Shown here: piece by piece, positions 10,343 to 37,407 of the stretch
Numbering within the stretch: position 1 is the first letter of the stretch
Layout of the letters: each line of letters starts with the position of its first letter
Program-made: the position numbers and the translations under genes
From: a virus
Direction: 5' to 3' (one strand)
Virus record (IMG/VR): IMGVR_UViG_3300049830_000285
Location: 1-64,000 of that record
Length of the DNA: 64,000 nt
The notes under the pieces: model-generated
Seen by the model: only the letters and a program-made list of their open reading frames with translations
What the model was told of the DNA's origin: nothing
Database searches by the model: none

Positions 10343-12517
10343 TTGAAATTCATGAGAAAAACAAAAAATAACAGTGAAGTAAAAGCATCCTCGGAAATTG
10401 CTGAAAGTTTTAAACGAGGCTTGGCTGCCTTTTCACAGGCAGCTTTAGAAGACCAACGTCTGTTAGAACCAGACGAGCACGAGGCAATTCCGGGTGAATT
10501 GCTGGATGAAGACGATTTCGATATTCCGGTGTCCAAAGGGAAGAGAGACAATTGCCCGCCACCGCCCGAGCCTGAAAAAAACAAATTTAACATTGACGGA
10601 ATGGTCGATGTTGTTGTTTTTTGCGAGCACGCTTATTTTCTCAATCTTCGATTAACACCGTGGCAAAAGTTAATTCTTAAGGTTTTTTACTCTGGTAGCC
10701 CAGGTAACACAAATCTTACTATCGAGGATAACAAAACAACAGATTGTTCCGGGTGTGTCTGGAATTACAACAGAAAGTTTGAAAATCTTTATTACAAATC
10801 GCTATTAAAAGACGAGGAAGGCGGGAAGGGAAGCTTGATGCCACCGGAAAACTCCCCATGTTTAATGTGCAATAGATTCAAGTCTGAAATCAGAGCCAAA
10901 CGTTACGAGAAGTTGCGAGAAGAGGCTATTCGACAAGACCAATTTGATGAAATAACATTGTTAGAAGCTCGTGAGTTAGTTGACATGTTTCAAACTGAAA
11001 TGGATTTGCTAAATGACCCTCAGATTGAGCATAAAGTTAGGCAGCAAATACTTGATAAATTCGGTAGAAAATTCCAAGAACTTATTTTGGTACTTGGTCG
11101 TCGTTCTGGAAAATCATTTTTAACGGCTGTTATTACGCTTTATGAAGTATATCGCTTCTTGATGATGGGGCATCCACAGGGAAGATATCCTATCATGGAA
11201 TTTGATATTATAACCATTTTGAATGTTGCTGTTTCTGAGGGTCAGGCAAAAATGGCTATTTTTGATAAAATTAGACAGCTTGCTGAATCCAGCCCGTATT
11301 TTGTGCAATACATCGGAAAGTCATTGCAGAATGAAATGTTCTTCTTAACAGACCACGACAAAGAAGAAAATGTAAGAAGGTTATCAAGAGGTCAAGAGGC
11401 AATGGTTGGAACCATCCAGCTCAAATCTGGGCACTCAAATGCCTCGGGAATGGTTGGAGGAACCATGGCTGTTATCATCATTGATGAAATGGCTGAAATG
11501 GCACCAGCGTCTGCCGAGGGCGGCACCGACGATGAATTGTACGATAAGTTGAAGCCTGCTATTTCTACTTTTGGACGAGATGGGAAAATGATATGTATTT
11601 CCAACCCTCTTGGCCCATATGGTAAATTTTATAAACTGTACTTAGATAGCTTTGACGATAACCTGGTTTTAATGGCTCAGTTGCCCACTTGGTTATCAAA
11701 TCCTTATATTGAGCAAGCTTTTCTTAACCAACAAAAGAAAAAAGACCCCACGAATTACCACGTCTTTTATGGCGCTAAATTTGGCTCTTCTGGTTCTGAT
11801 GCTTGGATAAGTGACGCTTATGTTAAGCGAGCTTTTGAACACATGGGACACACCAGAAGAGCAATTGATGGTAGACCGATGACACGCTATTTCGCGCACC
11901 TTGACCCATCGAAGTCATCGGATTACTATACGCTTGTTGTCTGTCACTCAGAGCCTATGGAAAATGCAATTGGGCCGGACGGAAAGCCAATGCAGCGAAT
12001 TATCATTGACCATATGCATATGTGGAAACCAAAGGGAAAAAACCAACCTATTAATTCCGAAGAAGTGGACAGATATATTCTTAAGCTTGCCACCAGGTTT
12101 AAGTTTGCTCAAATCAGCTATGACCAATGGAACAGTCAAAGTTCAATCACTAAATTGGTTAATCACGGATTAAACGCAGTGCAAAAAACATTTGATATGA
12201 AGTATAAATCAAGCATTTATGGTGAGTTGTATGAATTATTTAATGACGATAGAATCATTTTTTACAATGTTGATTCATTGTATGAAAATGAAACTGACGG
12301 TAAATTTGAAGAATTAATGGAAGTTACTGAATGTAAGAGACAATTTGTGAACTTGCAGAGAAAATTCAGTGGTAAATCATATAAGATTGAAGCACTTCCC
12401 GGATTTCAGGATGATTTTTGCGATGCCGTTGCTGCTGCTTCCTACGAAGCTCTTAAAGACAAAGTATATTCAACTCTTCCGAGGCTACGAACAGCGATGT
12501 TAAGGGGAATCCGATAA
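10343..12517 (+). CDS. terL: Terminase large subunit
   Basis: LTPWQ, Walker A LGRRSGKS, Walker B IIIDE, ISNP coupling motif, RNase H-type HLDPS, YDQWNS, DDFCDAVA. The ATG at 10352 may be the real start. Confidence 0.93.
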   Translation: MKFMRKTKNNSEVKASSEIAESFKRGLAAFSQAALEDQRLLEPDEHEAIPGELLDEDDFDIPVSKGKRDNCPPPPEPEKNKFNIDGMVDVVVFCEHAYFLNLRLTPWQKLILKVFYSGSPGNTNLTIEDNKTTDCSGCVWNYNRKFENLYYKSLLKDEEGGKGSLMPPENSPCLMCNRFKSEIRAKRYEKLREEAIRQDQFDEITLLEARELVDMFQTEMDLLNDPQIEHKVRQQILDKFGRKFQELILVLGRRSGKSFLTAVITLYEVYRFLMMGHPQGRYPIMEFDIITILNVAVSEGQAKMAIFDKIRQLAESSPYFVQYIGKSLQNEMFFLTDHDKEENVRRLSRGQEAMVGTIQLKSGHSNASGMVGGTMAVIIIDEMAEMAPASAEGGTDDELYDKLKPAISTFGRDGKMICISNPLGPYGKFYKLYLDSFDDNLVLMAQLPTWLSNPYIEQAFLNQQKKKDPTNYHVFYGAKFGSSGSDAWISDAYVKRAFEHMGHTRRAIDGRPMTRYFAHLDPSKSSDYYTLVVCHSEPMENAIGPDGKPMQRIIIDHMHMWKPKGKNQPINSEEVDRYILKLATRFKFAQISYDQWNSQSSITKLVNHGLNAVQKTFDMKYKSSIYGELYELFNDDRIIFYNVDSLYENETDGKFEELMEVTECKRQFVNLQRKFSGKSYKIEALPGFQDDFCDAVAAASYEALKDKVYSTLPRLRTAMLRGIR

Positions 12518-22795: not shown

Positions 22796-23695
22796 ATGAG
22801 CAAATTTAGAAGAGTAGAAGAAACACAAGCCGTTCCACAATATATTGATGAACGATTTGCTGGCACAAGTAATGACGACCCATACAAAAAACTTCGTGAA
22901 GGTCGTCAGGATAGACAAATGAAGATTGCTTCTCAAGAAATGGGAAGCCGTAGAGTGGAATCTCCAAAGGTTAATGAATGGGAACATCGTGAGTCTCAAA
23001 GCGAGTATGTTCAACCGTCAATGATGAGAGAATTTGACGAACAGTTAACAAGATTTAGCGCGGCTGACGTAAATCCAAATTCAGTTCGACGTTTAGACAC
23101 TGGATATGACGCTGGATTAAATACACGTTCTGCTGGAAATCAATTATTTGTAACTGAAACCGACGCTATTGATTTGATTCGAAGAGGAGCCTCTATGTGG
23201 AACTCAGACTTTGATGATATTTCAAGAGTATGCAATGCATCTATGTCTGAAAATGATGATGTATTTCAAGACCAAGAGAAGCGACGAAGTGCGCGGCAGG
23301 CGAGTCATCAAAAATGGGAAAAGAAAGCTTCACGACGCGAAATGCTTGGCAGAACCAATGTTCTTGACCGCGCAGGCGCAGTTGTTAGAAACTCGTTCCG
23401 AAATGAATATGATACAGCAACTGGTTTTGGTATGCCAAATTATGATTCTGTTTTAGAACAGGAAAAAACTCGAATGCAGCAACAACAAGAATCGCGAGAA
23501 TCACGGCTTGAATTGAAGCGACGAGGATATAGCCCAGAAGAGCGACAAAGCACATGGGAAGAGCATGCAACGCGAGCCGTACATGCTTCAAGATTCCAAG
23601 ATGTAAAGCTTGATTGGGTTGACCGCTATGTTCAGAAATATGACGACGACGACAACAATCAGGTTGATTTATCACAAGAATTGAGACGACGTTAA
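22796..23695 (+). CDS. Hypothetical charged protein (head module)
   Basis: 299-aa ORF in a tightly packed operon. Confidence 0.65.
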   Translation: MSKFRRVEETQAVPQYIDERFAGTSNDDPYKKLREGRQDRQMKIASQEMGSRRVESPKVNEWEHRESQSEYVQPSMMREFDEQLTRFSAADVNPNSVRRLDTGYDAGLNTRSAGNQLFVTETDAIDLIRRGASMWNSDFDDISRVCNASMSENDDVFQDQEKRRSARQASHQKWEKKASRREMLGRTNVLDRAGAVVRNSFRNEYDTATGFGMPNYDSVLEQEKTRMQQQQESRESRLELKRRGYSPEERQSTWEEHATRAVHASRFQDVKLDWVDRYVQKYDDDDNNQVDLSQELRRR

Positions 23696-26837: not shown

Positions 26838-29270
26838 ATGGCTAATAATAATAACAAAGCGGAGGGACTAGACGTTGCAATTGCGTCAGCAGCAAGAGAA
26901 GCTCTTGGTAAAAAGTCCACCCGTACCGCAGCAAGCACAACCCCACCTGGTGCGAATTCTTCAGAACATGTTCCACTTCCGGGTGTCCGAACGGGGCGCA
27001 TGGATGGAACGGTTACCAGGCGAATGGGGCAGTTCTCGGGCGGTGGTAGTAATACCAGCTTAGGGCCACCATCATTTTACGCACCATGGTTAACCGCATC
27101 TTCTTGGCAAATACCCAATAATAGAAAGGAAATCTATTTATGGGCACAATGGTGGGTTGATAACGAACCTAAAGTTGCCGCTGGTATTGAATTTTACACA
27201 GATTTTCCATTAAGTGGCTTTACACTTGAATGCCCAAATGCTTATGTTAAAGATTACTTTGAGAAGTTGAACAAAAAGCTGAAAATCAGTAAGAAAAATC
27301 CGCAAATTTCTCAAGAATATCATCTTAGGGGAGATTGTTTTGTTTTAGCCTCGCTAGAGTGCGAAAAATGTGGTGGAATGAATGAAGACCCCGATACGGG
27401 TGAACCGTGTAAACACGAAGGCGCTTCGTGGAAGGGATTGTCAATTTTAAATCCAGACCACATTGAAGTTCATCCAGCTATGCTCGACCAAGAGCCAGAA
27501 TATTTCTTCTTACCAGATGATATGATGAAAAAAGTAGTTCAGGAAAGAAGACCTGAAAAACTTTATAATTCAATGAGACCAGAAATGCGAAAGCTGATTT
27601 TAAGCGGTCAGCCAATTCATTTCTCTCCAGAATGTATTTATCACTTTAAGCGCGGCGGTCAACCCTGGCAGCCATTTGGTACCTCTCTTTTGCGTCGATT
27701 GTTCCAGACTCTTGCTTATAAGGATAAATTGCGTCAAGCTCAATGGTTGGTTGCAGAACGACACATCATTCCTATTAAAATCGTTAAGATTGGTGATAAA
27801 GACCGACCCGCAACAGAAGAAGATTTGATTGATGCACAAGACGAGCTTACAGCCCTCGCAAATGACCCTCTTCTTACTATTGTAACTCACCACGCATTTG
27901 ATTTTGATTATGTTGGCGCAAGCGGTAAGGTGCTGCAACTAACAAATGAATATGAAAATCTAAACCAAGATATTATTGATGGCTTGATGTTAAATAAAGC
28001 TATTATTAATGGCGAAGGGCCGTCATATAGTAATGCTCAAGTTGGATTGCTTACAATGGCTAAAAGACTTGAAAGATTCCGAGAAGAAGTGGCATTCTGG
28101 ATGGAAGAGCATCTTTATAAACCAGTTGCTATGTGGAACGGATTTACCACAGAAGGTAAGCGTGGTCAAATCGAATATGTTTACCCGACAGTAAAATTTG
28201 ATGATTTGCAATTACGAGATGACACCGGAAAGTTACAAACACTATTAGCTGCAAATCAGGCTGGTATTGTTTCAAATCAATCTGTTGTTGAAGCTTTGGG
28301 ATTACCATATGACCAAGAAGTTGAAAGACTTAGATTTGAACAAGGTTCTTCATTTATATCTTCACCAGACTTAATGAACACTGACATGAATAATGGATTT
28401 GGTCAAGGCGCGGGCGGCATGGGCAACGGCTTCCGTGGCCCAATTCCAGGGGCTCCGGGTGGTGCTCCAGGTGGCGCATCTCCAAGTGCCCCGATGGGAG
28501 CACCAGATATGGGCGGCATGCCTGGTTTGGCACCAGCAGCGAGTAATGACTGGAAAGCTAATTATAGATTTGCTTCCACGGTCAGCGGGGATATGTATGA
28601 TGTTCAATTGGCAACATGTCAAAATGAGCGCATTATTCGAACAGCTAGTAGAAAAATTCTCAGTCAAGCACATAAGGAATACATTGAAAGCATCGCACCA
28701 GTAACGGGAAGAGGCGCTTTGGGCGCTCTAGATATAGAGCCAAATGATGTATTTTCACAACTTGCTTTTGGGCCGAATGATGGTGGGCCGTTCTGTACTG
28801 CTATGAATAGAGCAGCTATGTATGAGATTATTCAATTTGATAAAGAAATGACTAATCGAGGCATGGTAAGAACTGGCGCTAAGAAAGGTGAAACCAAGCA
28901 AACATATCGCTTTACATCATTGGAACAAAAGCTATATCGACTCTTAATGCAAGCTGGATTACCTTTTGCCTGGTATGCACAGTATCTTGCTGGGCCGATG
29001 ACACAGCACTTCGAATATCAACTAGATGCCGCTATCCCAGCTATTAAATTGGGATTGGAAGCGGACGGTGAAATCTATCATAGTAATCCTGAAAAAATTG
29101 CTAAAGATAGAAAACGAGACTCATTACTAGCAACACAAGGTTGGACAATACTTCGTTTCACTGAAAGCGAATTAAATGAACATCCAGAAGAAGTGTTAAA
29201 AGTTATTATGCAAATGATTAGAAGGCTGATGGGCGCTGGCGAACATGTCGGTTCTACCGTTATTTTGTAA
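26838..29270 (+). CDS. Portal protein fused to a C-terminal DUF559/Vsr-like endonuclease domain
   Basis: Portal-type core (PFGTSLL, HIIPIKIVKIG, NAQVGL) directly upstream of the protease. After a Gly/Pro linker comes LEQKL..., YQLDAAIP..KLGLEADGEIYH...DRKRD.LL..QGWTILRF. Confidence 0.8.
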   Translation: MANNNNKAEGLDVAIASAAREALGKKSTRTAASTTPPGANSSEHVPLPGVRTGRMDGTVTRRMGQFSGGGSNTSLGPPSFYAPWLTASSWQIPNNRKEIYLWAQWWVDNEPKVAAGIEFYTDFPLSGFTLECPNAYVKDYFEKLNKKLKISKKNPQISQEYHLRGDCFVLASLECEKCGGMNEDPDTGEPCKHEGASWKGLSILNPDHIEVHPAMLDQEPEYFFLPDDMMKKVVQERRPEKLYNSMRPEMRKLILSGQPIHFSPECIYHFKRGGQPWQPFGTSLLRRLFQTLAYKDKLRQAQWLVAERHIIPIKIVKIGDKDRPATEEDLIDAQDELTALANDPLLTIVTHHAFDFDYVGASGKVLQLTNEYENLNQDIIDGLMLNKAIINGEGPSYSNAQVGLLTMAKRLERFREEVAFWMEEHLYKPVAMWNGFTTEGKRGQIEYVYPTVKFDDLQLRDDTGKLQTLLAANQAGIVSNQSVVEALGLPYDQEVERLRFEQGSSFISSPDLMNTDMNNGFGQGAGGMGNGFRGPIPGAPGGAPGGASPSAPMGAPDMGGMPGLAPAASNDWKANYRFASTVSGDMYDVQLATCQNERIIRTASRKILSQAHKEYIESIAPVTGRGALGALDIEPNDVFSQLAFGPNDGGPFCTAMNRAAMYEIIQFDKEMTNRGMVRTGAKKGETKQTYRFTSLEQKLYRLLMQAGLPFAWYAQYLAGPMTQHFEYQLDAAIPAIKLGLEADGEIYHSNPEKIAKDRKRDSLLATQGWTILRFTESELNEHPEEVLKVIMQMIRRLMGAGEHVGSTVIL

Positions 29271-29443: not shown

Positions 29444-32400
29444 ATGATGGAAAGACAAGGCAAATCAGGCGGATTCATTACGATAAGTAGTCTGATTATG
29501 AGTGAGGATAGAAAGAAAGCTGTTCCGCAGCGTCTTGCTATGGCTTCAGGTTCTGCTATGCGAATGGCAGCAAAAGAGGGTCTTTTAAGTTTATATGCTG
29601 ATGCAGATGATGTATTAGATAAATATAAAGATTTCGATATCGCCGCTTCTATGCGCGAACACAAAGGAAAATTACTGTGGGTGAGAGCGCGAGCTATTGA
29701 CGCAGATGTTGCTAACGCAAACGGTGATTATTTCAGTGAAAAGGAATTGCTTGGTGAGGTTGTTGACCAAAAGGGTAACAAAATGCCAGCCTACAAAACG
29801 TTTGAAGGCGTTCCGATTTACACAAACCACAAAAATGATGATATTGAACAAGCCAAGGGTATGGTTGTTTATGCCGAATGGGATGAAAAAGAAAAATGTG
29901 TTTATTGTACATTTATCGTAGACGAAGAAGCATATCCTGAAATTGCACGTGGTATTCGAGTTGGATATATGCATGATGTCTCAATGGGATGTCAAGTTGA
30001 ATCCGGTACATGTTCTGAGTGCGAAAATAAAGCATCAACAGAAAAAGAATATTGTGATTGTCTTAAAAAGTATAAAGGCAAAAAGCATCCCAAAACTGGT
30101 AAAAAGGTTTACGAAAAAAATCATGGTATCAAATTTATTGAACTTTCTGTTGTTGGTGACGGCGCTTTCGATAGTTGTATGATTGAAGAAATCTACGATG
30201 TAGATGATATTCTAAACAAAGCTGCTAATCTTGACAAAAGAGCAGAGTCAATCAGAAGTTCAATCATTGTCGCAAGTACATCCACTCCAAAAGACTTCAT
30301 GGTACGAAGAGCATATGAAGATTGTCTTCGTACTGCATATGATACAACTAAGCAGACTATTCGTGTAGCACAAAGTGCTGGCACGTTAGTTGGCGGTCAA
30401 TTGCTTGCTGGAGAGGGAGCGGGAAATAACACTACAGTTTCCAACATCTTGAAGTTCCTTGGTATTGAAGGTACCGCAGGATTGAATATTCTTGATATGT
30501 TGAACTTAGCGCTCAACTTTTTGGAAGTTGCCGTTATGAATCTTTTCGCTAGAAAAGATAATGTAGATTTGGCACACGTTGGCAAAATCACTAAATCTAT
30601 GGCTGATTTACAATCAACCATGCAAGATATGATTGATGATGGAGTCGAAACAGGCGGAAATGGTCAGCAACCTATGAATCAAGGTTCAATGCAGCCACCA
30701 CAAGAAGCACAACCAGGTGGTCAAACTCCACAAGACGATTATTCACAGGGCGCAGTAGGGCGCTCAATGGGGCCTCAAGCTCCACAGGGCGCACCTCAAG
30801 GTGGCGCACCTCAAACACAGAATCAGGCATTCCAGGGAATGCCGATGGGATTTGGTGGTGGTATTTTTGCCAACAGCAATTTCAACCGCGTAGTTTGGGC
30901 ACATGATGATGAGGAAGAGGTTTCTAGCAGAACTGTCACGGCAGCTACTATGCGAGAAACAAATGAATCATTTGAAATGAGCCCTGCGACTTACAACAGT
31001 AAGTCCGTGACAAAGTTGGCAGAATCTATTATGAGTCTAGCTGACACGCTTGGTGTATCAACTCATCAAGCAACCCCAAATCCAGTAGTGGCATCAAAAC
31101 CACTGCCAAACAAACCAAGCACCCAGACCGGAGGAAATAAAACAATGAGCATTGACTTTTTCAAGCAGTTCAAACAGTCTCGCAATAAGCGAGAGGCCGC
31201 GGTGATGGAGCAGGAAGTCAAGGTTTCTGATAAATCAGGACATCAACTTCGGCTCTCCGCTGACGGTAGCATCAAGGCATATTATCAAGGACAACTTGTT
31301 CCTGATTTTGACCCAATTCTTACAGAAGAGCACAAAGCAGCTATTGAAGCTGAAGACGGCCCTCGCGTAGCCGCCGCCCTTTTATCAGATTTTCAGAGAT
31401 TTACTCGAACTGCTGAGTGGAAACCATCTCATGAATACAATGAAACACGAGAAGAACAATTAGAAGCAGTTCGAACTGGAACTGACGATGATGTGAAAGA
31501 AAATCTTCTTGGTGATAAAGCTGGTCGATATAATCGAACCAACGAAGAGCAAGATATCAAAGAAAGAGAGCTTGGTAAGAAAGATTTGCGACCTGGCACC
31601 GACGATGAGGTAAAAGAAAATCTTCTTGGTGACAAAGCTGGATTGTATTCTCGACAGAACAATGAAATTGATGTTCGAGAGAATTTAATCAATGACGCTC
31701 GACGTGGGCACCCTGTCGATGTTATTGAACTCCAACTTGACCAAGTTCGAAAGAATTACGGGCCTGGTGACACTGGTTTGGTTACAACTGCGAGTGTTGA
31801 TGCTTTGTGCAAAGCTGTTATTGCTGCACGAGTAACTCCAGAAGAAGTTGTTGAAGCAACTCAAGTGCTTGCTGAAAGAGCTGATTTCGTTGAATTGCTT
31901 CAACTTGCTCACCTTGGTGATAAAACTCGCCGCGTTGAAGCAAAGCGAAATGATTTCTGGAAACTTGGTAGCACCGAAATTGCTGCTGAAGCTGCTGTAC
32001 TTGACGCTCTTGGAACTGCTGTAACTAATGAAATTACTGCTGCTGACATTGCAGAATGTCTTCATGTTGTAACATCAGAAGTAAGCAAGGCTATTCAGTC
32101 AGTTACTCGAATGGTTAAAGCTCATATAGGAGACAACTCTGGTGTCGAACCTTCTATGTTGCGCAAGACAGTTTCTAAAGCTGACAAATATCGCGCAGCT
32201 TTGGCTACCATTGCCGAAACTGAAACCGAACAACCGATGAAAGACCATATCAAAACAGCTTTGTTTGCTTTTGCAAATGCCGCTGACGAATTGGCTGCTC
32301 ATCCACATGAAATTGTTGCTGCTTTATCAAGTGTTGAAGAATCTGATTTGCTCGCAGACATGGAGCTTGCTCGTTCTGCCGCAGTTCGCGCTTCTCGATT

Positions 32401-33760
32401 AACAGTTAGAGCACGTCGCGATTTCTGGGGTGCGGGACGCTTTGCTTCTAAAGAAGGCGTTTATGAAAATGTTGTTGGTTGGTTGGCTGACTATGCGGAA
32501 GCTGGTAACTACTCCAGCGGAAGCATTGTTACTGCTGCTAAGAAATTGGTTGCACAGCCAGTTGCTGCTGAGAAATTAATCAGCAAGGTTATTACAACCA
32601 CAACTAAAACAGCCGCTATTCAGGTAACTGACGAGCGAACAAGCACCAAGCGATTGGAATGCACTGTGACCGATATTGGTCTTGACCCGAAAGATGAGGG
32701 TTTTGAATCTGCTTTTCGAGACAAGGCAATTGAAATCATGGCTTCCAACGGATACACAGTTGACCCATCTACTTTCACATTCACTGATTTAAATATCAAC
32801 GGCGAAACAGTTAGCGCATCTGTAACCTCTACAGTTCGAAAAACATTTAATGCCGATGCTCCTAGCACTGGTATGGTGTCTGGTGCAACTGATGGTGGCG
32901 ATATTTCAGCCAATGTTTCAGCACCTGGTTCAGAAGAAATAGCTGAAGCAGCTCCTACCGAAGAGCCAACAGTAGTTATGAGTGAATCAATCAAGAACAT
33001 TCGAATCGCACAGCGACAAGAAATCTTGAGTCGATATGCTCAAATGCCTGGTGGTGGTGGTGGTATGGGCGCTGGTGCCCCTGGTGGAGCTGGTGCTCCT
33101 CCTGCTGGTGATTTAGCTGGTGCGGCTGACGGACTTGGCATTTCCTCGTTCACTGCTCCAACTGCTGAAAATCCAGATGAAGACCCAACAAATGTTGACG
33201 ATATGTCTGAACCAGGAACTAAAAAGCCATGGGGGACAATTTGTCCACAGTGTGGTAGTGAAGATGTTGATGTTGCAAACGGTGAAGGCAACTGTAACTC
33301 ATGTAATGCTCAAATTGAGTATGAGTTCAGCGCCAAAGTTAAGCCAAGTAGTGACAAAGATAAAGGAGCTGAGCCAGCACCTGCCGCTGACGAAGCCGCA
33401 GCACCTGAGCTTGGTGGAGATATGGGACTTGGCGGAGCAACTGCTCCTGCACCTGCTGGTGGCGCTCCCGGTGGAGCCGCACCTGGCCCTGGTGGAACTG
33501 CACCAATGATGATGTCCGCCTCTTACAAGACTAGCCCAGAAGTATTGATTCGTGTTGCACAACTTGGTGACAATTTCGATAGAAATGCTGAAAAGGTTCT
33601 TCCTGTGGGATTCGTATGTCCTAAGTGTGGAGACAAGAATGCAAACAAAATTGCATCAATCGGACGCTCCTATTGCTACGAATGCGGAACCATTGCCGCA
33701 TCTGAAATTCAAGAAAGAAACGGAGAACTTTACTCCACCATTTCATGGGTTATTAACTAA
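29444..33760 (+). CDS. Prohead maturation protease fused to a long scaffold/core region
   Basis: N-terminal NANGDYF, FEGVPIYTNH (His), DVSMG (Ser), FIELSVV; followed by ~1200 aa of helical and low-complexity sequence and two C-terminal Cys4 ribbons. Confidence 0.8.
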   Translation: MMERQGKSGGFITISSLIMSEDRKKAVPQRLAMASGSAMRMAAKEGLLSLYADADDVLDKYKDFDIAASMREHKGKLLWVRARAIDADVANANGDYFSEKELLGEVVDQKGNKMPAYKTFEGVPIYTNHKNDDIEQAKGMVVYAEWDEKEKCVYCTFIVDEEAYPEIARGIRVGYMHDVSMGCQVESGTCSECENKASTEKEYCDCLKKYKGKKHPKTGKKVYEKNHGIKFIELSVVGDGAFDSCMIEEIYDVDDILNKAANLDKRAESIRSSIIVASTSTPKDFMVRRAYEDCLRTAYDTTKQTIRVAQSAGTLVGGQLLAGEGAGNNTTVSNILKFLGIEGTAGLNILDMLNLALNFLEVAVMNLFARKDNVDLAHVGKITKSMADLQSTMQDMIDDGVETGGNGQQPMNQGSMQPPQEAQPGGQTPQDDYSQGAVGRSMGPQAPQGAPQGGAPQTQNQAFQGMPMGFGGGIFANSNFNRVVWAHDDEEEVSSRTVTAATMRETNESFEMSPATYNSKSVTKLAESIMSLADTLGVSTHQATPNPVVASKPLPNKPSTQTGGNKTMSIDFFKQFKQSRNKREAAVMEQEVKVSDKSGHQLRLSADGSIKAYYQGQLVPDFDPILTEEHKAAIEAEDGPRVAAALLSDFQRFTRTAEWKPSHEYNETREEQLEAVRTGTDDDVKENLLGDKAGRYNRTNEEQDIKERELGKKDLRPGTDDEVKENLLGDKAGLYSRQNNEIDVRENLINDARRGHPVDVIELQLDQVRKNYGPGDTGLVTTASVDALCKAVIAARVTPEEVVEATQVLAERADFVELLQLAHLGDKTRRVEAKRNDFWKLGSTEIAAEAAVLDALGTAVTNEITAADIAECLHVVTSEVSKAIQSVTRMVKAHIGDNSGVEPSMLRKTVSKADKYRAALATIAETETEQPMKDHIKTALFAFANAADELAAHPHEIVAALSSVEESDLLADMELARSAAVRASRLTVRARRDFWGAGRFASKEGVYENVVGWLADYAEAGNYSSGSIVTAAKKLVAQPVAAEKLISKVITTTTKTAAIQVTDERTSTKRLECTVTDIGLDPKDEGFESAFRDKAIEIMASNGYTVDPSTFTFTDLNINGETVSASVTSTVRKTFNADAPSTGMVSGATDGGDISANVSAPGSEEIAEAAPTEEPTVVMSESIKNIRIAQRQEILSRYAQMPGGGGGMGAGAPGGAGAPPAGDLAGAADGLGISSFTAPTAENPDEDPTNVDDMSEPGTKKPWGTICPQCGSEDVDVANGEGNCNSCNAQIEYEFSAKVKPSSDKDKGAEPAPAADEAAAPELGGDMGLGGATAPAPAGGAPGGAAPGPGGTAPMMMSASYKTSPEVLIRVAQLGDNFDRNAEKVLPVGFVCPKCGDKNANKIASIGRSYCYECGTIAASEIQERNGELYSTISWVIN
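31478..31645 (+). repeat. Duplicated coding segment GTDD(D/E)VKENLLGDKAG
   Basis: Two near-identical ~48-bp copies 117 bp apart. Confidence 0.85.
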
Positions 33761-36546: not shown

Positions 36547-37407
36547 ATGAGCATGGTACGAAACAATCGAAACACCAATGAGCAAAGAGAAGCTATTATT
36601 GCAATGGCTCTTGACACCGCCGATGGACGTGTTGCTCTCGCGCAAGCGATGGTGGAACCCATCAAAACAAGCTTGATGTATCAAGCAATCGGACGTAAGC
36701 TTTTGATGGTAGACGAATTGCCTCAAGGCGCTCTCCCACGATACGAACGAGATGTGGCTGTGAAGTCATATGTCATTCCAAAGCGTGGTATGGTTCCAAC
36801 TCACGTAGTTGAAGCTGAAGAGTTGTTAATCCCAGTTGTTGAGTTGGCTACCAACCCTACAATCAAGATTAACGAAATCAACCAACGACGATACTACATC
36901 GTTGACCGAGCGCAAGTTCGTGCAAAGGATAGTATCCAACGACAAGAAGACGTTGAAGTGTTCAAGGTCATCAACGCCGCAGTTCCTACCGACCACAGCA
37001 TTGCTGTTGCTGGTACATTGCAGCCAGAAAACATCAACCTCGCGTTGACGTTGATTGAAGAGCACGAATTGATTGGCGCAAAGGTCATTATGCACCCACA
37101 GCGCTACAAGGACGTTCGAGACTGGGGTAAGGATTTCTTCGACGAGGCAACTCAACGAGACATCTTGATGACTGGTCTTTACGGTCACATCTACTCTGCG
37201 GACATCCATGTTTCGACAATGGTTCCAAAGAACGCTGTGTACGTGCTTGCACCTGCGCAGTTCGTAGGCGCGATGCCTGTTCGACAGGACATCACTGTTC
37301 TTCCTGCTGACGACCCTAAGAAGCTTCGACTTGGTTGGGTTGTTTTCGAAGAAGTTGGCTTCGGTGTTATAAACGACTACGCGATTAGTCGAATCATCGT
37401 TAGCTAA
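36547..37407 (+). CDS. Major capsid protein (compact HK97-fold type)
   Basis: GRVALAQAMVEPI, VDELPQGALPRYERD, QRQED, GWVVFEEVG; highly biased codons; followed by a strong terminator. Confidence 0.85.
   Translation: MSMVRNNRNTNEQREAIIAMALDTADGRVALAQAMVEPIKTSLMYQAIGRKLLMVDELPQGALPRYERDVAVKSYVIPKRGMVPTHVVEAEELLIPVVELATNPTIKINEINQRRYYIVDRAQVRAKDSIQRQEDVEVFKVINAAVPTDHSIAVAGTLQPENINLALTLIEEHELIGAKVIMHPQRYKDVRDWGKDFFDEATQRDILMTGLYGHIYSADIHVSTMVPKNAVYVLAPAQFVGAMPVRQDITVLPADDPKKLRLGWVVFEEVGFGVINDYAISRIIVS

Follow-up and report, generated by a model that had tools for sequence, protein, structure and literature searches.

The 64,000-nucleotide window analysed here (positions 1 to 64,000 of the IMG/VR virus record IMGVR_UViG_3300049830_000285) contains a single uninterrupted gene whose 810-residue product is a genuine portal protein joined to a nuclease of the Vsr/DUF559 fold. 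From the N-terminus, a portal core is followed by a flexible Gly/Pro/Ala/Met-rich linker, a partly helical spacer and the nuclease domain. We hold both this anatomy and its conservation among related phages with high confidence; the fusion is real, widespread, unexplained and experimentally tractable. The source record is 177,708 bp long and has a CheckV completeness estimate of 47%, which points to a huge phage of about 380 kb. In public annotation pipelines, relatives of the protein are currently labelled ‘very-short-patch-repair endonuclease’ or ‘hypothetical protein’, and the former label, carried by many of these portals, keeps the portal gene of an entire clade of phages out of sight.

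Portal core

The core matches phrog_16240 ‘portal protein’ (E 3.1e-36) and the Pfam family Portal_Mu (PF06074; residues 261–486, 31.7 bits against a cut-off of 23.9), and the portal profile also finds the solved SPbeta YonE portal, 9PHA. Residues 58–506 align with the portal gp14 of Bacillus phage G at 28% identity (E 1e-69), and the two belong to one portal lineage. An insertion in the core with the pattern CxxC...CxH (portal residues 172–198, ~27351–27431 of the window) contains four invariant residues – C175, C178, C191 and H193 – and appears as a gap in the pairwise alignment of phage G gp14. This Cys/His insertion may be a zinc-binding knuckle of the portal.

The C-terminal nuclease domain

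Residues 726–794 match two Pfam families above their curated cut-offs, DUF559 (PF04480; 37.1 bits against 20.6) and REase_MTES_1575 (PF18741; 41.5 bits against 38.2), which bears out the DUF559 assignment made in an earlier, sequence-only reading of this stretch. That reading had placed the domain at ~28914–29230; a six-frame search of the genome agrees, putting DUF559 at 28914–29219, the sole copy in the record. The Vsr family of Pfam is not listed for the module at E-values up to 10, where only DUF559 and MTES_1575 appear (the filters of HMMER may drop weaker matches).

The predicted structure leads to the same fold. An AlphaFold2 (AF2) model of residues 565–810, built on a 53-sequence alignment of non-redundant relatives, has a mean predicted local distance difference test score (pLDDT) of 82, rising above 90 in the nuclease domain. 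Foldseek places I-Bth0305I (3R3P), Vsr (1CW0) and the DUF559 protein NGO0050 (3HRL) in its top ranks, with a template-modelling (TM) score of 0.84 on the target for the Vsr-type α/β fold. VIA-align, which is independent of Foldseek, returns the same three clearly above the later rows: 3HRL with a Z-score of 11.9 (root-mean-square deviation 1.8 Å over 93 residues, 29% identity), 3R3P with 11.6 and 1CW0 with 9.6. Sequence-profile matches in the PDB are 3HRL (E 4.7e-10, 29% identity) and 3R3P (E 2.3e-6).

All the motifs quoted in the sequence-only reading are present, namely QLD730AA, E741-A-D743-G-E-I-Y-H748, D757-R-K-R-D761 and G768-W769-T-I-L-R773-F. In the 53 non-redundant relatives, E696, D730, E741, H748, D757, G768 and W769 are invariant, and D743, R760, D761 and R773 are at least 90% conserved. 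We mapped the catalytic positions by profile alignment to 3R3P and 3HRL, combined with the published equivalences between I-Bth0305I and Vsr (PMC3239194). E696 corresponds to E25 of Vsr and E170 of I-Bth0305I, D730 to the Mg ligand D51 and to D196, D743 to H64 and N208, H748 to the general base H69 and to H213, and D757 to D97 and D222; E741 falls at the position of Vsr F62 and represents the additional acidic residue conserved in the EDxHD family, to which I-Bth0305I belongs. The catalytic residues are thus retained, as had been proposed, the full Vsr/EDxHD set being invariant or nearly so, and the domain is apparently an active Mg-dependent endonuclease with a complete catalytic set.

Conservation of the fusion

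A word-indexed search found 513 homologues of the portal open reading frame (ORF), the best 120 of which are almost all 776–835 amino acids (aa) long and carry the identical pair of Pfam domains; an exhaustive search over 50%-identity representatives gave 318 proteins at E ≤ 1e-30. The observation that a single ORF joins portal and nuclease holds well beyond this record, as the same single ORF occurs on independent contigs from other samples at 95%, 88%, 85% and so on down to 45% identity.

Hidden Markov models (HMMs) of our own for the core, the spacer and the nuclease were run on all 267 fetched relatives. Core and nuclease occur together in 233 of them, down to ~39% identity, and the core alone in 33, for the most part fragments or the remotest portals (≤ 36% identity); the earlier worry that the domain might be absent from related portals is thereby excluded. 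Nuclease and core show about the same degree of conservation, the mean identity of the nuclease being 51% where core identity is 50–60%, and the pairwise identities of the two parts are closely correlated (Pearson 0.96 over 126 intein-free sequences, 7,875 pairs). These comparisons show that the portal C-terminus was extended once, long ago, by tether and nuclease, and that the extension has since been inherited vertically. Such co-divergence with the core, together with slow evolution, is the pattern of a core function rather than of a polymorphic conflict effector.

The most trivial explanation of the fusion would be an artefact of assembly or annotation in which a lost stop codon or a frameshift has run two genes together. 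One locus could be read in its favour: in a metagenome-assembled genome (NCBI GCA_040384225.1 contig, locus L004, 5500–5620), a 64%-identical portal is split into a 522-aa core and a 260-aa DUF559 ORF, so that portal and module lie in two frames. The split is due to a one-base indel beside a G-run at the start of the linker, which runs on in the other frame, and we reject it as a natural split form; the frameshift may stem from a sequencing error, mark a pseudogene or be a true slippage site. Since contigs from JGI, ENA, Logan and NCBI, hundreds in number and independent of one another, carry the single ORF, the artefact that the sequence-only reading had allowed for is excluded, and we give it practically no credence.

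Phage G gp14, of 648 aa, has neither DUF559 nor a detectable counterpart of residues 515–810. No DUF559 gene was found within 4 kb of the outgroup portals P0245 and P0260, which leaves an origin of the domain from a neighbouring gene unsupported (P0217, on a 1.9-kb contig, is uninformative). Convincing stand-alone forms of the module were not found among the matches; seven short ones, on contigs of 1–3.8 kb, are probably fragments.

Two observations on individual relatives stand apart. A single protein, P0074 (784 aa, on a 4.1-kb ENA contig), has a different C-terminus: its core, linker and spacer are followed by ~110 unrelated residues, for which a Pfam match was not found, and it could be either a real domain replacement or a chimeric contig. 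Some 2.7 kb upstream of the distant portal P0260 lies a 616-aa gene with mCpol/Cas10-palm-like Pfam matches (L008/L009:1-1297), whose product may be a phage-borne protein resembling cyclic-oligonucleotide polymerases.

Inteins in the portal clade

Although the window’s own portal has no intein, inserts of at least 120 aa, one to four in each protein, occur in 108 of the 267 fetched relatives. The insertion sites recur, about five of them in the core and one in the nuclease – residues ~103, 121, 175–180, 360, 398 and 741 in the numbering of the window portal – and Pfam recognises intein splicing, Hint and LAGLIDADG domains in the inserts. The intein-bearing relatives (P0126–P0235) include proteins of 3003 aa (P0229), 2602 aa (P0228) and 2238 aa (P0205).

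The nuclease site deserves particular attention. In at least nine representative clusters or lineages, the insert sits exactly after the Glu of E-x-D-G-x-x-x-H, and residue 742 is Cys there. These inserts are 361–389 aa long, start with C-L-x-P and end with (S/T/K/F)-(H/K/F)-N, followed by C-D-G; the one in P0140 includes a LAGLIDADG domain. By these sequence signatures, the active-site insert is a canonical class-1 intein with a Cys at position +1.

Inteins gather at conserved functional sites of important proteins, where their imprecise loss is lethal. Since the intein has been kept in the active site and the domain has not been lost, the phage probably needs its nuclease domain, and we take the active-site intein as independent evidence that the E-x-D-G motif is essential for function.

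A LAGLIDADG_3 domain was also seen elsewhere in the record (G000:C1:86181-86348, locus L010), within a 935-aa open frame; it is probably an intein in another gene.

Linker, spacer and proposed cleavage sites

The Gly/Pro/Met-rich linker described in the sequence-only reading is real and extends over residues ~517–568. A G/P/A/M-rich linker is found in all 126 intein-free relatives tested, with a length of 25–88 aa (median 47) and an overall composition of 27% G, 20% P, 18% A and 11% M. Its presence is thus universal; its sequence is unconserved and looks disordered.

The spacer that follows, residues 572–690, is predicted to form a long helix (572–600) and two shorter ones (610–618 and 658–673) with loops between them. 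Its HMM matches 125 of the 267 fetched relatives, which corresponds to the nearer half of the clade only, distant members being much shorter in this region. No Pfam match to the spacer was found at E-values up to 10, and structure searches barely covered it, with atlas matches that all had TM scores below 0.5 and were uninformative. For residues 572–700, neither NUMOD nor helix–turn–helix (HTH) families of Pfam are listed at E-values up to 10, a range in which the HMMER filters drop most matches above ~E 0.1.

Two short motifs had been proposed as sites at which the nuclease might be cleaved from the portal. Both are present as quoted, RFAS at residues 577–580 and RTAS at 601–604. They lie outside the flexible linker, RFAS inside the predicted helix 572–600 and RTAS at its end, and they belong to conserved motifs of the nearer clade (Y576, R577 and A579; R601 and A603). 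The pattern R-x-A-[S/G] shows no general enrichment across 15 head-region proteins and does not occur at all in the major capsid protein. The helical location and this missing enrichment leave RFAS and RTAS unsupported as protease sites, if not disproved. The residues directly before N-Y-R vary among relatives, and a conserved cleavage motif is not evident. Processing of the portal tail is no more than conceivable.

The only local protein in which R-x-A-[S/G] is enriched is the product of a 299-aa head-region ORF (22796–23695), with four occurrences against 0.3 expected from its composition.

Head-module neighbours

The portal gene belongs to a head module in which the genes for the large terminase TerL, a protease fusion and the major capsid protein all lie on the same strand (Table 1).

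Table 1. Positions in the window of the portal–nuclease gene, its parts and the neighbouring head genes
Feature	Coordinates	Strand	Basis or remark
Large terminase TerL, 724 aa, RNase-H-like nuclease domain at residues ~510–705	10343..12517	+	phrog_2 E 2.8e-26
Whole portal–nuclease ORF	26838..29270	+	810 aa + stop codon, uninterrupted
Portal core, residues ~60–513	27015..28376	+	PHROG, Pfam, phage G and 9PHA matches
Low-complexity Gly/Pro/Ala/Met-rich flexible linker, residues ~517–568	28386..28541	+	composition; relatives
Spacer, residues 572–690, partly helical	28551..28907	+	AF2 model, pLDDT mostly 73–88
Vsr/DUF559/EDxHD-type PD-(D/E)xK nuclease domain, residues 691–800	28908..29237	+	Pfam, PDB profile and structure searches
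E741-A742-D743 active-site triplet	29058..29066	+	intein site between the codons for E741 and residue 742
1438-aa protein, N-terminal prohead-protease domain at residues ~57–246	29444..33760	+	phrog_18299 head maturation protease E 3.2e-19; phrog_2774 E 1.2e-24
Major capsid protein	36547..37407	+	phrog_2522 major head protein E 6.5e-67

TerL has a highly divergent sequence; its profile found no match among PDB sequences, and only a fold search resolved it. Its AF2 model (pLDDT 82.5) aligns in Foldseek with the HK97 TerL 6Z6D (E 3.4e-18 over 533 columns) and, with TM scores of 0.72–0.75 on the target, with the isolated TerL nuclease domains 5M1O and 5TGE (G20c, P74-26). Its invariant acidic residues are D521, D594, D690, D691 and D694. 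An N-terminal extension of ~240 aa contains four invariant cysteines (C135, C138, C173 and C176); these point to a zinc-binding module that precedes the ATPase. As in the portals, LAGLIDADG inteins occur in TerL relatives, here of 1015–1108 aa (P0299, P0301, P0304, P0325, P0381 and others).

The gene directly downstream of the portal encodes a protein that looks like a giant fusion of the protease–scaffold type: after the protease domain come more than 1100 aa interspersed with several G/P/A/M/Q-rich linkers, and two CxxC pairs at the C-terminus resemble zinc ribbons. Should the portal tail be processed, this protein would be the candidate enzyme. Searches for its protease type gave neither a PDB sequence match nor a Pfam match.

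Possible functions of the portal nuclease

A portal is a dodecameric ring at the unique vertex, and its C-terminal crown faces the capsid interior. The sequence-only reading had placed up to twelve nuclease domains inside the head, and this agrees with the established topology. The procapsid would be built with about twelve of them, on flexible tethers of ~50 residues, round the inner mouth of the DNA channel. Our preferred reading, which we put forward tentatively, is that the nuclease is a resident enzyme that acts on the phage’s own DNA at this inner mouth, inside the head – a housekeeping part of the DNA-handling machinery. It would nick, trim or grip that DNA, at its leading or trailing end, during packaging and ejection, and site or structure specificity of the kind found in other Vsr-family enzymes would spare the intact packaged duplex. 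The nuclease would be neither a swappable anti-host weapon nor a substitute for the nuclease of the terminase. What favours such housekeeping is the combination of a monomorphic domain, core-like slow evolution and the retention of the domain despite an intein in its active site. A precedent for a nuclease at the portal is T4 endonuclease VII, which associates with gp20 (Golz and Kemper 1999, cited in PMC9958956).

Several considerations weigh against a resident role. Members of the clade are all uncultured. An active nuclease amid densely packed DNA is a hazard and requires specificity or some inhibitory mechanism. TerL supplies the packaging cuts, and no missing step demands a nuclease on the portal, whose C-terminus, being inside the shell, cannot reach branched or stalled DNA outside. 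That the catalytic residues are conserved would be just as expected of an injected enzyme. Finally, structure searches find the fold in RNA-binding RAP domains too, and a DNA substrate is to this extent an assumption.

The nuclease probably does not play two more specific roles suggested in the sequence-only reading. Termination of packaging can be rejected as unnecessary, as TerL folds as a complete terminase with a nuclease domain of its own; moreover, the portal C-terminus lies on the capsid-interior side of the channel, the wrong side for a headful cut. Nicking at mismatches, as in classical Vsr repair, would be expected to come with a cytosine methyltransferase partner, and neither a cytosine-5 methyltransferase (PF00145) nor an N4/N6 methyltransferase was found in the available record, about half (47%) of the genome; as noted above, the Vsr-family profile is also unlisted for the module.

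A third earlier suggestion, an ejected effector, is possible as such and makes a poor fit with a monomorphic, slowly evolving domain. Its fullest form would have the prohead protease cut in or after the linker, so that a module of ~27 kDa is set free, remains close to the portal and then exits together with the DNA, to cut or nick DNA of the host, of plasmids or of competitor phages at an early stage of infection. For RNase, 2H and InPase domains carried by portal or MuF proteins, injection has been predicted (Iyer et al. 2017, PMC5512222), and the packaging and processing of many ejection proteins is known from huge phages such as SPN3US (PMC10052503, PMC7411985). The next gene encodes a protease domain, and the long disordered linker would make an accessible substrate. 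Yet conflict effectors fused to MuF or portal proteins, among them anti-host toxins, are typically polymorphic (PMC5576092, PMC5512222), whereas here one domain is fixed down to ~39% identity and changes at the slow pace of the core. The lack of an evident conserved cleavage motif, the fact that R-x-A-[S/G] is not a general motif of the head proteins, the limit of just 12 copies per virion and the failure to find stand-alone forms all count against release as well, and we consider it unlikely, if still the most serious competitor of a resident enzyme. There would be no hazard from nuclease activity inside the head if the fold were a non-catalytic clamp or plug that binds DNA or a DNA end, or that helps to arrange the first layers of DNA when the genome is very large. 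Its position at the inner portal mouth and its twelve-fold multivalency on flexible tethers would suit such a part, and the P22 portal barrel and SPP1 gp7 are thought to act in a similar way. Pure binding domains derived from nucleases, however, usually lose their catalytic residues; across this deep clade the catalytic set is invariant or nearly so, and the active-site motif is the very target of the intein. We therefore regard a clamp as improbable. A domesticated or selfish homing endonuclease, finally, seems to us a shade more improbable still: an EDxHD gene would have become fused in frame to the 3′ end of the portal gene, and its product would cut the portal region of co-infecting relatives in the cytoplasm, before assembly, biasing inheritance towards its own head module. 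In its favour, the closest characterised phage enzymes of this fold are homing endonucleases (I-Bth0305I, Z 11.6), the best GenBank phage match carries a homing endonuclease annotation, and the clade is rich in selfish elements, as the 108 intein-bearing portals attest. Against this, Pfam detects no NUMOD/HTH DNA-binding module (a divergent one could escape), the sequence is nearer to the cellular DUF559 protein 3HRL than to I-Bth0305I, and a nuclease sequestered in procapsids would work poorly. Nor do we see a cycle of gain, decay and loss, as is usual for homing genes: the domain is fixed, being present in 233 of 267 relatives, and is passed on strictly together with the core (r = 0.96), which speaks against a mobile homing endonuclease.

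A bolder variant of the resident enzyme, which we think improbable, is that twelve tethered Vsr-type nickases carry out a step of packaging or ejection that, throughout a large clade of huge phages, has gone unrecognised. Entering DNA would be nicked or trimmed to relieve torsional or topological stress, or the leading end of the ~400 kb genome would be processed and held. To our knowledge, portals are viewed as passive conduits and sensors, and all packaging-related DNA cutting known to us is done by the terminase, on the outside; were the nickase reading true, the portal itself would be a DNA-processing enzyme. More generally, the fusion would make the portal vertex a site of enzymatic activity or else represent a new class of virion-delivered nuclease, and the poorly understood DUF559 family gains a defined physical context in which to search for its substrate.

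Comparison with known systems

The principle of fusing an enzyme to a portal is already known from computational work; the DUF559/Vsr version was not found described in our literature searches, which were not exhaustive. A similar nuclease domain occurs in 56 GenBank phage records, and among the 40 matches listed none bears a portal annotation. The closest cultured relative, Bacillus phage G, shares a homologous core in gp14, without the nuclease module.

As for the domain itself, NGO0050 (3HRL) and the other DUF559/REase_MTES_1575 proteins have the same fold and the same set of motifs, E...D...E-x-D-G...H...D-x-x-R-D...G-W...R-F. Those described so far occur either as stand-alone cellular proteins or at the C-terminus of helicase or HEPN conflict proteins (PMC3710099); none has been reported on a virion structural protein, and their own biochemical function is mostly obscure. 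I-Bth0305I (3R3P; PMC3239194) is likewise a phage-borne Vsr-like domain with equivalent active-site residues, and the E, D, H, D catalytic motif of the EDxHD homing endonucleases is present in the portal nuclease. In contrast to this fixed, vertically inherited C-terminal part of a portal, I-Bth0305I is intron-encoded and mobile, with a NUMOD/HTH region at its N-terminus. Escherichia coli Vsr (1CW0/1VSR) shares the PD-(D/E)xK variant with a His general base, and its D51, H69 and D97 all have equivalents here; its context is repair, that of the portal nuclease structural.

With regard to the architecture, the portal and MuF fusions of Iyer et al. (2017; PMC5512222) follow the same principle, a C-terminal nucleic-acid-targeting enzyme built into the virion. 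The enzymes in those fusions are PBECR RNase, 2H phosphoesterase and InPase – the term ‘Vsr’ is absent from that paper – and they vary between relatives, unlike the portal nuclease, which is monomorphic across a large clade with P0074 as the only exception. T4 endonuclease VII (gp49), bound to gp20, is also a DNA-structure-specific nuclease physically located at the portal; gp49 is attached non-covalently, has a different fold and clears branched DNA from the outside, whereas the nuclease described here is a covalent part of the portal, at the end that faces the capsid interior.

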